64,000 nt of DNA from an uncultured archaeon (lineage in GTDB: Archaea; Thermoproteota; Nitrososphaeria_A; Caldarchaeales; Wolframiiraptoraceae), in contig CALKCF010000004.1 of NCBI GenBank assembly GCA_938083505.1, forward strand, positions 32,001-96,000, in the 5' to 3' direction. Below, piece by piece: positions 6,574-63,962 of the stretch; position 1 is the first letter of the stretch, and each line of letters begins with the position of its first letter. The translations under genes were made by a program, and so were the position numbers. The notes below the pieces were generated by a model. It was not told the DNA's origin. It searched no databases and saw only the letters and a program-made list of their open reading frames with translations.

Positions 6574-6584
6574 GATGAGTCGGT

Positions 6585-6677
6585 TGCGGCGGCCGGGATT
6601 CGAACCCGGGATTTCAGGCTTGGAAGGCTTTCGCCGAATGTTCGACTGCGTCCTAGTCCAGACTAGACCACCGCCGC
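6585..6677 (-). tRNA. tRNA-Gly(TCC) with a 17-nt intron at 29/30 (6629..6645)
   Basis: Acceptor stem GCGGCGG/CCGCCGC-A and T arm CCGGG-TTCGAAT-CCCGG. The anticodon stem CAGGC/GCCTG forms only after removing TCGAACATTCGGCGAAA. Confidence 0.92.
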
Positions 6678-6818
6678 AGACGACATAAGACCTGCTATTA
6701 TTTATCATTAATAAGAATTAAAGATAATAAAAACTTGATGCCGAACCAACTAGAAGACAAAATACTTAAATAACAACAGGCACTTTATTACGAGCAATAT
6801 AAGAGGTAATGAATAGCT

Positions 6819-62227: not shown

Positions 62228-63817
62228 ATGGGTAGGCGGATAGTTCTAACTTGTGATAGAACATTGACAAGTGAGTATAGGCATGTACCGCTTTTGGATT
62301 TCCTCCCATGCGCGCCCTCAGAAAAAGTTCCTGAGTTTCTCTTCAAATTTTTAGCACCCCAAATACCGGCTGTGGATGGTGTGCTGCCCTATGCACCTTA
62401 TGGTCTTAGGAAGATTGAAGCATCTTTGCGTAGGGATTATAGCGAGAAGGACGTAGTAGTTGCACACCCAGATTACGTTGAAAATTTCATCGGTGAGGAA
62501 ACGAAGGTTGTTGGAATATACGAGATGGACCCACTCGGCTTAGGTCCTTTAAGCCTCGCATTTACGACTGGAAAATTTACGTCGTTCTCAAAGAAATACT
62601 TTGTAGAACTTATTAACAAACTTAACACAATTAGGAAGTCTTATGGCTTTAAGTTCAAAATTGTCGTGGGAGGTCCTGGCGCGTGGTATCTTGATGTAAG
62701 ACCTCAGATAAGGAAGGAGCTGAACATAGACCACATAGTGATAGGTGAGGCTGACCACGTTGCGCCGATTTTATTCCACGAGTTTGAGGAGGGCGATCCG
62801 CCGGAGACCATAAAGATTACGAATCCGCCAAGGTTGGAAGACATACCATTGATAGTTAATCCGAGCATACATGGCCTCGTGGAGGTCATGAGGGGTTGCG
62901 GTAGAAATTGCCAGTTCTGCGACCCGACGCTGAGGGTTGCGAGGTATGTACCGGTAGAGAACGTACTAGAAGAGATCAAAGTTAACACGAAGCACGAAAT
63001 CCATAATGCATGGACTCATAGTGAAGACATCTTCCTGTATAAGGTTGAAGATAAGAAGAATTTCTATCCAAATAGGGACGCACTCATCGAACTCTTCTCA
63101 GCGGTGATGTCAACCCCAGGTATAAGGCACAGCAACCCGACACACGGGACCGTAGCGCCTGCGGCCGCCGACCCGTTACTCATACATCAGCTCTCTAAGA
63201 TATTGAGAAGTTCACCAGAACATTGGATAGGCATACAGTGCGGAATGGAGACAGGCTCCGGAACTCTGCTTGCTAGGTACATGCCGTTGAAGGCTAAGCC
63301 CTTTAACCCTGAAGAATGGCCAGAAGTTGTGATAAATGGAACGGCGGTCTTCAACATGAATTATTGGTTTCCGGGCTACACGTTGCTGATAGGGCTTCCG
63401 ACAGAGACCGACGACGATTTATGGGACACCGTAAGGTTGCTGGATGCAATGGAAATTATTCTGCCCGAGAAGATAGGCGAGAAGGCTCATTTCACAGCTA
63501 CACCGCTCTTCTTCGTACCTATGGGTGTATTGAGCGGTGAGGAGTTCTTCGACGCGAGTAAGCTGACAGAGGCGCAGATGTGTGTTATATACAGAGCATG
63601 GAGACACATACTCATAGAGCTGAATAGACTCCCGACTCGGATGATAAGGCTGAACCCGTTACTGAAGCTAGCGTTCAATATAATAGCGCACTTCGGTGCC
63701 AACTTAGTAGTAAAGGTCATAGAGAAGTCTGCGAAGTCTATGGGTTATGACGTCTCGAAGGCTCTGAGAGTCAGCCCGATAGAGGTAAAGATCAGCCTGC
63801 CCCAGACCCCAGCTTAG
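62228..63817 (+). CDS. Radical SAM protein with an N-terminal B12-binding-like domain
   Basis: APYGLRKIEA, MDPLGLGP, VGGPGAW, GEAD, EVMRGCGRNCQFC (CX3CX2C) and GMETGS. Confidence 0.88.
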   Translation: MGRRIVLTCDRTLTSEYRHVPLLDFLPCAPSEKVPEFLFKFLAPQIPAVDGVLPYAPYGLRKIEASLRRDYSEKDVVVAHPDYVENFIGEETKVVGIYEMDPLGLGPLSLAFTTGKFTSFSKKYFVELINKLNTIRKSYGFKFKIVVGGPGAWYLDVRPQIRKELNIDHIVIGEADHVAPILFHEFEEGDPPETIKITNPPRLEDIPLIVNPSIHGLVEVMRGCGRNCQFCDPTLRVARYVPVENVLEEIKVNTKHEIHNAWTHSEDIFLYKVEDKKNFYPNRDALIELFSAVMSTPGIRHSNPTHGTVAPAAADPLLIHQLSKILRSSPEHWIGIQCGMETGSGTLLARYMPLKAKPFNPEEWPEVVINGTAVFNMNYWFPGYTLLIGLPTETDDDLWDTVRLLDAMEIILPEKIGEKAHFTATPLFFVPMGVLSGEEFFDASKLTEAQMCVIYRAWRHILIELNRLPTRMIRLNPLLKLAFNIIAHFGANLVVKVIEKSAKSMGYDVSKALRVSPIEVKISLPQTPA

Positions 63818-63872
63818 ATGCAAAAAATTCAATAAGCCCTATGTTGTATAAATATACTGGCCGGGGTAAAAG

Positions 63873-63962
63873 GCCGGGGTTGGCGAAAAGCCACCGAAGG
63901 CCGAGCAGCTAGGCGGCGGCCTGCAGAGCCGCTCCACTCGGGTGCAAATCCCGACCCCGGCT
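63873..63962 (+). tRNA. tRNA-Cys(GCA) with an 18-nt intron at 8/9 (63881..63898)
   Basis: GCCGGGG/CCCCGGC-T acceptor and GCGGC-CTGCAGA-GCCGC anticodon arm. Removing TGGCGAAAAGCCACCGAA gives GCCGGGGTGGCCGAGCAGCTAGGC. TATA-like TATAAATA at 63847-54. Confidence 0.88.

Follow-up and report, generated by a model that had tools for sequence, protein, structure and literature searches.

Non-canonical introns of archaeal tRNA genes have been reported at sites ranging from 20/21 to 59/60, with 3/4 named as the extreme (review PMC4090602), and the tolerance of archaeal tRNA genes to introns is thought to extend wherever a BHB motif can form. In previous descriptions (Marck and Grosjean 2003; Sugahara 2008; PMC4090602; PMC3082918), these introns are short, lie outside position 37/38, present two 3-nt bulges and a 4-bp helix, and are processed by a two-subunit, broad-specificity EndA and by RtcB. 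The intron described here, in the tRNA-Cys gene of a hot-spring archaeon, resembles them in length, position and motif, and the genome encodes both RtcB and a predicted two-subunit EndA. It differs from the described introns in two respects: its motif consumes the 5' strand of the acceptor stem as well as the 5' strand of the D stem, and it is accompanied by a leader copy of the acceptor strand, which is unmentioned in those papers. When an intron lies eight bases from the 5' end, the splice motif and the acceptor stem compete for one strand; moreover, the cut 5' exon in the 8/9 case is too short to stay bound at high temperature.

Extra pairing elements are known from the split tRNAs of Nanoarchaeum equitans and Caldivirga and from permuted tRNAs, in which additional leader and trailer pairs hold the pieces together and present the BHB (PMC4090602, PMC3218864, PMC3978253). 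A similar function is proposed here for the tRNA-Cys leader. In split and permuted tRNAs, however, the helper strands form pairs among themselves and are lost through cleavage at the BHB, whereas the tRNA-Cys helper would pair with the mature 3' acceptor strand, mimicking another part of the mature molecule, and would not be removed by EndA but be displaced later and cut off by RNase P. The Caldarchaeales also provide a described example of an intron-bearing tRNA gene with a directly repeated tRNA 5' fragment upstream of it (Sugahara et al. 2012; PMC3293823). There the repeated fragment sits at a distance of 1.8 kb or over 500 kb and a recombinase gene intervenes, whereas the copy described here is 4-6 nt away in tRNA-Cys (8 nt in the tRNA-His of the related genome G035), is 7 nt long, lies at the predicted transcript start and is conserved across genera. 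We did not find 8/9 or 9/10 stated as an intron site in the literature, in which site numbers written with a slash escape text search, nor did we find a paper mentioning a leader copy of the acceptor strand.

Gene identity and splice junction

The window analysed is a 64,000-nt stretch of DNA (G000:C4:32001-96000) from a genome of Ca. Terraquivivens (Caldarchaeales, formerly Aigarchaeota), a hot-spring archaeon; the assembly comprises 1.15 Mb in 10 contigs and is 98.5% complete. Positions 63873-63962 of the window, on the plus strand, contain a tRNA-Cys(GCA) gene in which 18 nt (63881-63898) are inserted between U8 and G9. Exon 1 (GCCGGGGT; 63873-63880) corresponds to G1-G7 and U8 and is identical to the 5' end of an intronless ortholog from the same genus (G001, L002). 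The intron (TGGCGAAAAGCCACCGAA; 63881-63898), located at 8/9 and missing at exactly that point in the G001 ortholog, is made up of a bulge base U, the hairpin GGC-GAAAA-GCC, the central-helix strand ACCG and the bulge bases AA. Exon 2 (63899-63962; 64 nt) extends from G9 to C72 (63961) and the discriminator base U73 (63962), with no encoded CCA; it comprises the D arm, the anticodon arm, the T arm and CCCCGGC-U. Its landmarks are the anticodon GCA (63923-63925, in the loop CUGCAGA), A18 (63907), G55 (63944) and the 3' acceptor strand (63955-63961). The gene possesses both a GCA anticodon and a U73 discriminator, which are the identity elements of CysRS.

When the insert was removed in silico, ARAGORN called a 72-nt tRNA-Cys(gca), with a predicted spliced junction reading GGGGUGGCCGAG. 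In the G001 ortholog, GCCGGGGT is directly joined to GGCCGAG, and this intronless gene scored 51.6 bits on the Rfam tRNA model RF00005 (cut-off 29 bits); it differs from the spliced G000 tRNA-Cys by one base, in the variable loop. A one-base shift of either splice site alters the product, so that the junction is fixed at 8/9. Indeed, cutting after the second bulge base on both sides reproduces the ortholog junction GGGGU/GGCCG (slash at the point of joining), and no other register does so. The identity of the gene, the site of the intron and the normal 5' end left by its removal, all put forward in the original prediction, are therefore borne out by ARAGORN on the spliced sequence and by the uninterrupted gene of the same genus.

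The same prediction held that standard tools may miss this gene, and this proved to be the case. The unspliced gene gave no ARAGORN call, with or without intron mode; no Rfam match at the gathering score, nor at E ≤ 10 on a 301-nt stretch; and no hit at E ≤ 1 when the complete assembly was searched with the Infernal tRNA model. In tRNAscan-SE 2.0, candidates are extended by 60 nt to catch introns near their ends (PMC8450103).

Splice motif and distribution of the intron

The outer (h) helix of the tRNA-Cys motif pairs 63872-63874 with 63900-63902; its first base is G(-1) (63872), at the end of the spacer, which pairs with C12. The central helix pairs 63875-63878 with 63893-63896 (CGGG/ACCG; three pairs and one G.A), and the bulges lie at 63879-63881 (GU/U) and 63897-63899 (AA/G). 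With two 3-nt bulges on opposite strands, a 4-bp helix between them and flanking helices on both sides, the structure conforms to the hBHBh' definition, with one G.A mismatch. The exon helix, central helix, bulges and hairpin GGC-GAAAA-GCC were thus all placed correctly in the original prediction, and the formation of a BHB from G(-1) and the 5' acceptor strand is reinforced by the same register being perfect in Pelearchaeum. Overall, the splice motif uses G(-1), the 5' acceptor strand, the first three bases of the D stem and the intron, and it excludes a normal acceptor or D stem; the clash with a formed acceptor stem had been anticipated on the same grounds.

To describe the distribution of the intron, we searched 40 relatives with exon 2 and then compared the flanks. 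Four other Terraquivivens genomes proved to have the same 18-nt insert, its loop differing by A versus G. Two Pelearchaeum genomes, from another family, carry a 23-nt insert at the same 8/9 site but with a different hairpin. Their inner helix reads GGCUCC/GGAGCC in one genome and GGCUCU/AGAGCC in the other, which constitutes a compensatory change, and their register is a perfect hBHBh' (CGGG/CCCG, bulges GU/U and AC/G, 6-bp inner helix). Among the 76 genomes of the order searched, the 8/9 insert was observed in Terraquivivens and Pelearchaeum only. A scan of genome contigs returned at least 100 stretches, most of them chance matches in high-GC bacteria, with five tRNA-Cys among the matches listed; a metagenome scan added one further contig with the insert, and a hot-spring run added one more variant. 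Besides G000, the insert site was seen in seven further genomes or contigs, with another hairpin in Pelearchaeum, which is more than chance would produce. Two natural intron losses were also identified within the genus, in the tRNA-Cys of G001 and in the tRNA-His of G004.

A copy of the acceptor strand in the leader

The heptamer GCCGGGG (63860-63866, plus strand) lies upstream of exon 1 and is complementary at 7/7 positions to the 3' acceptor strand (63955-63961). It is separated from the gene by the spacer UAAAAG (63867-63872), which ends in G(-1); in relatives this spacer is 4 nt long (AAAG, GAAG, TAGG or CAAG). A leader copy complementary at all seven positions was present in 6/6 of the intron-bearing tRNA-Cys loci tabulated, as well as in G051 and in one hot-spring contig, so that the intron-bearing genes with a copy comprise five from Terraquivivens, two from Pelearchaeum and one from the hot-spring contig, with a spacer of 4-6 nt. 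By comparison, none of the 18 intronless tRNA-Cys orthologs carries a 7/7 copy, the best match being 5/7. The intronless gene of G001 retains GTCGGGA (L002, about 1480-1492), with two mismatches, 24 nt after the promoter box. The 7-mer GCCGGGG does not vary between loci that differ in their flanks and in the intron hairpin.

Within the G000 genome, an upstream copy of the gene's own acceptor strand was found for tRNA-Cys and tRNA-His only, every tRNA with a recognisable T arm being considered, and these two are also the only tRNAs of G000 with an intron before position 11. A genome-wide search for a tandem GC-rich 7-mer with a downstream complement returned the same two loci and one unrelated match.

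Judged from its sequence and conservation, the leader copy looks functional. We hold with moderate confidence that it serves as a stand-in for the real 5' strand: it would hold the 3' acceptor strand, tether the 8-nt exon and free the real strand for the BHB. This bears on an earlier argument that splicing should precede RNase P processing and release an 8-nt 5' exon plus leader. The first part agrees with the order proposed below; the second needs amending, since the copy at 63860-63866 could act as a tether. With the copy present, a stem resembling the acceptor stem is possible while splicing is under way, and the short 5' exon would not just be set free.

tRNA-His genes with the same arrangement

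The tRNA-His(GUG) gene of the same genome (G000:C2:162614-162731, minus; L128:165-270) reads GGCCGCGG-UU-GGCCGCGGUG, followed by a 21-nt insert and then AGGUAGC. Intronless orthologs place the insert at 9/10. The Infernal tRNA model matched positions 9-63 of this gene only. Its BHB is shifted by one in register: the outer helix pairs G1C2C3 with G11G12U13, the central helix pairs G4C5G6G7 with ACGC and is closed by G.A, and the bulges are UG/G and AG/A. The combination of leader copy and 9/10 intron was found in five Terraquivivens genomes, whereas a 7/7 leader was found in none of the 19 orthologs without an insert at 9/10, this comparison being limited to the BLAST set of relatives, with 36 other genomes of the order lying outside it. 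In G004, the tRNA-His gene (L132) has no intron and keeps GACCGCGG, with one mismatch and the same UU spacer.

A tRNA-His gene from a third family (G035, L171:1485-1590) has a 16-nt intron at 9/10 and a relaxed motif without a real inner helix. Its leader heptamer, GCCGCAG, located 8 nt upstream of G(-1), forms Watson-Crick pairs with the whole of the 3' strand CUGCGGC, whereas the helix made by the real 5' strand, GCCGCGG, includes a G.U pair. This leader thus tracks the 3' strand rather than the exon. If this leader were used in the BHB, it would leave an A.C mismatch in the central helix. The genomes sharing these arrangements are kin, and the independent events perhaps number three or four, not fourteen.

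These observations bear on the possibility that, although the gene and its intron are genuine, the copy upstream has no function and is a scar left by integration, along the lines of the model proposed for the tRNA-Thr of Caldiarchaeum (PMC3293823). Elements that integrate into tRNA genes leave tRNA fragments behind as direct repeats, and such integration has been proposed to deliver introns in a member of this order (PMC3293823); the patchy spread of the intron, over two genera from two families, would also fit a lateral arrival. However, only 2-8 nt separate the copies, the repeats do not flank an inserted element, and no integrase adjoins the tRNA-Cys gene, which is flanked by genes for a radical SAM protein and a glycosyltransferase. 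A scar would also have to account for a 7-mer that does not vary where its surroundings do, for the same design in a second tRNA with its own sequence, for the G035 leader complementing the 3' strand rather than copying the exon, and for copies that are mismatched where the intron has been lost. We therefore regard a scar as unlikely.

Probable promoter and transcript start

An A/T box, AAAAAATTCAATAA (63822-63835, plus strand), lies 24 nt before the leader copy and is conserved in all six Terraquivivens loci, among which the next 23-24 nt vary. The distance from box to leader copy is 23-25 nt in the tRNA-Cys genes of Terraquivivens and Pelearchaeum and in the tRNA-His gene of G035, while the DNA between varies. 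Many tRNA genes of G000 have a similar box about 20-26 nt before G1, which is the commonest spacing there. On this comparative basis, the AAAAAATTCAATAA box is probably the BRE/TATA promoter of the tRNA-Cys transcript; given its conservation and fixed spacing, the transcript probably starts at the leader copy. This spacing, the G035 leader and the mismatched copies that follow intron loss together favour function over accident, as far as can be read from sequence. A weak C/D-box-like match (SNORD57, 21 bits versus a 47-bit cut-off) was also observed at 63780-63844 of the window, overlapping both the promoter box and the last part of the gene before it, and is probably due to chance.

A second candidate, the TATA-like word TGTATAAATA (TATAAATA; 63845-63854, plus strand), has its end 18 nt short of G1 and 5 nt short of the leader copy. 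If this word directed the start, transcription would begin at exon 1 or within it, and the copy would not be transcribed. On such a reading, transcription would begin near G(-1) from TATAAATA, the BHB would form without a stand-in, and the copy would act at most as DNA. The word is the best match in this species of a crude promoter matrix; as this matrix gave a noisy spread of distances, we relied on conservation and spacing instead. Both point the other way: neither Pelearchaeum nor the four other Terraquivivens loci preserve TGTATAAATA, whereas both keep the upstream box and its 23-25 nt distance, and the 18 nt from TGTATAAATA to G1 compare with the commonest 20-26 nt. The word is thus probably not the promoter in use, and an untranscribed copy appears quite unlikely, the more so in view of the folding results below.

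Precursor folding and processing enzymes

The precursor was folded with ViennaRNA from the leader copy onwards. The copy paired with the 3' acceptor strand with a probability of about 1.0 at 37 °C and 0.8 at 60 °C, and the real 5' strand and the intron formed an arm that replaced the D arm. The outer BHB helix had the same probabilities at both temperatures. In a transcript starting at G(-1), without the leader, the real strand was taken up in the acceptor stem and the outer BHB helix had a probability of 0, which argues against a copy that is never transcribed. In the tRNA-His precursor, the leader took the 3' strand with a probability of about 1.0 up to 75 °C.

The nearest-neighbour model preferred a neighbouring register with 2-nt bulges, so that the canonical central helix of tRNA-Cys had a probability of at most 0.16; the outer and central helices of tRNA-His reached at most 0.11. 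A hand-built splice-competent fold and a native-like fold had about equal energy. The modelling thus supports the idea that the leader frees the real strand, but stops short of demonstrating the BHB itself.

The sequence GGCCGGGGT occurs twice, at 63859-63867 and 63872-63880, and either occurrence could give the 5' half of a BHB. The upstream copy might accordingly be the true exon 1 in this species, with a 31-nt intron (63868-63898) and the same tRNA product. In four of the six loci tabulated, though, the first copy is followed by A, G or C, which would yield a tRNA without U8 (U follows in the other two), and there is no inner helix beside that bulge. Even then the intron would retain a strand able to hold the 3' acceptor strand. 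We consider this arrangement very unlikely.

The G000 genome encodes the enzymes that processing would call for. Two paralogs of the tRNA_int_endo family (EndA) were found, in open frames of 189 and 192 aa located around C3:217650 and C2:45181, and their sequences fit the two-subunit type, which has been reported for Caldiarchaeum subterraneum (PMC3082918). RtcB (578 bits) and the RNase P RNA (155 bits) are also present. Sequence and comparison establish the gene, the intron site, the motif, the strict association of leader copy and intron, and the presence of these enzymes.

Proposed order of processing

Where the transcript begins, whether the leader pairs as proposed in vivo and in which order the steps follow one another are inferred; processing may proceed as follows. 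Transcription would start at the upstream GCCGGGG copy, so that the RNA emerges with the leader copy, the real strand and the intron ahead of the rest, and the BHB arm is able to fold. Once the 3' strand CCCCGGC has been made, the leader copy would be its free partner, and this stand-in would keep the 3' strand from drawing the real 5' strand out of the BHB arm. The two-subunit EndA would then cut after U8 and before G9. At this stage the 7-bp helix of the stand-in would tether the 21-nt piece formed by leader and exon 1, which would otherwise be held by 3 bp only, until RtcB joins U8 to G9. Once the intron is gone, the D stem could form and the real strand displace the stand-in; RNase P would act last, trimming off the 13-nt leader.

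If this reading is true, the stand-in strand solves both problems raised by an intron so close to the 5' end, namely the competition for one strand and the loss of a short exon, and explains how such early sites exist; it also imposes an order on splicing and RNase P cleavage. The leader copy would, in addition, provide a simple annotation signature for tRNA genes that common tools miss. More tentatively, and with slightly less than even confidence, we suggest that the leader stand-in is a general and required cis-helper wherever an archaeal BHB borrows the acceptor strand, with an obligatory sequence of splicing, strand exchange and RNase P cleavage; that it decays after intron loss; and that it represents an undescribed class of pre-tRNA element.

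tRNA-Cys complement of the genome and additional observations

Exon 2 has one match in the G000 genome, and a scan of this genome for a GCA anticodon arm followed by a T loop found this locus only. The gene at 63873-63962 is the only tRNA-Cys detected in the 98.5% complete genome; that it should be the sole one had been set as a check on the original prediction, and no second credible candidate emerged from the ARAGORN, Infernal, exon-2 or anticodon-arm searches. A gene missed by the tools used here is thus the sole one detected for an amino acid. A second ARAGORN call of 'tRNA-Cys', at about C5:11942-12032 (minus; L129), was rejected: it has A73, and its acceptor stem is identical to that of tRNA-Gly(GCC). 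This Gly-like gene encodes CCA, a Gly(ccc) call is also possible, and neither reading has U33. In this gene, 21 nt are enclosed by the anticodon stem, and the spliced loop would be G-C-CCC-G-G or G-G-GCA-A-G, both without U33.

A run from an RNA library yielded one 482-nt contig of the T. tengchongensis type, which is unspliced, includes the flanks and is equal to a DNA contig from another run. That the gene is disabled and keeps its insert, cysteine being decoded by another tRNA, could be argued from the absence of spliced RNA in this single contig and from the 10-contig state of the assembly, but is extremely improbable, as no other candidate was found at this level of completeness, CysRS is present, the tRNA-Cys exons are 97-98% identical across the five other Terraquivivens genomes with the gene, the Pelearchaeum stems differ by compensatory pairs, and the insert keeps its BHB in both genera.

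The T loop of the G000 gene reads TGCAAAT (63943-63949) and includes G55, an unusual feature that had been pointed out before. Among the tRNA genes of G000 listed, G55 was seen in tRNA-Cys only. The canonical G18-U55 elbow contact is not available in this tRNA, which has A18 and G55. In 25 orthologs from across the order (L001-L025), positions 18 and 55 covary: 12 loci combine A18 with G55, the other 13 combine G18 with U55, and mixed pairs do not occur. This covariation suggests that the A18/G55 combination probably replaces, and may not simply lose, the usual contact between G18 and pseudouridine 55.

Two further intron-bearing tRNA genes of the genome were noted. In tRNA-Asp (G000:C2:145717-145791 and downstream, minus), a 29-nt insert lies within the 3' acceptor strand, at 68/69; inspection of this locus revealed no obvious mirror-image copy that could act as a stand-in. 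The other lies in the window at 6582-6678 (minus) and was called by ARAGORN as Val(aac) in plain mode and as Gly(tcc) in intron mode.
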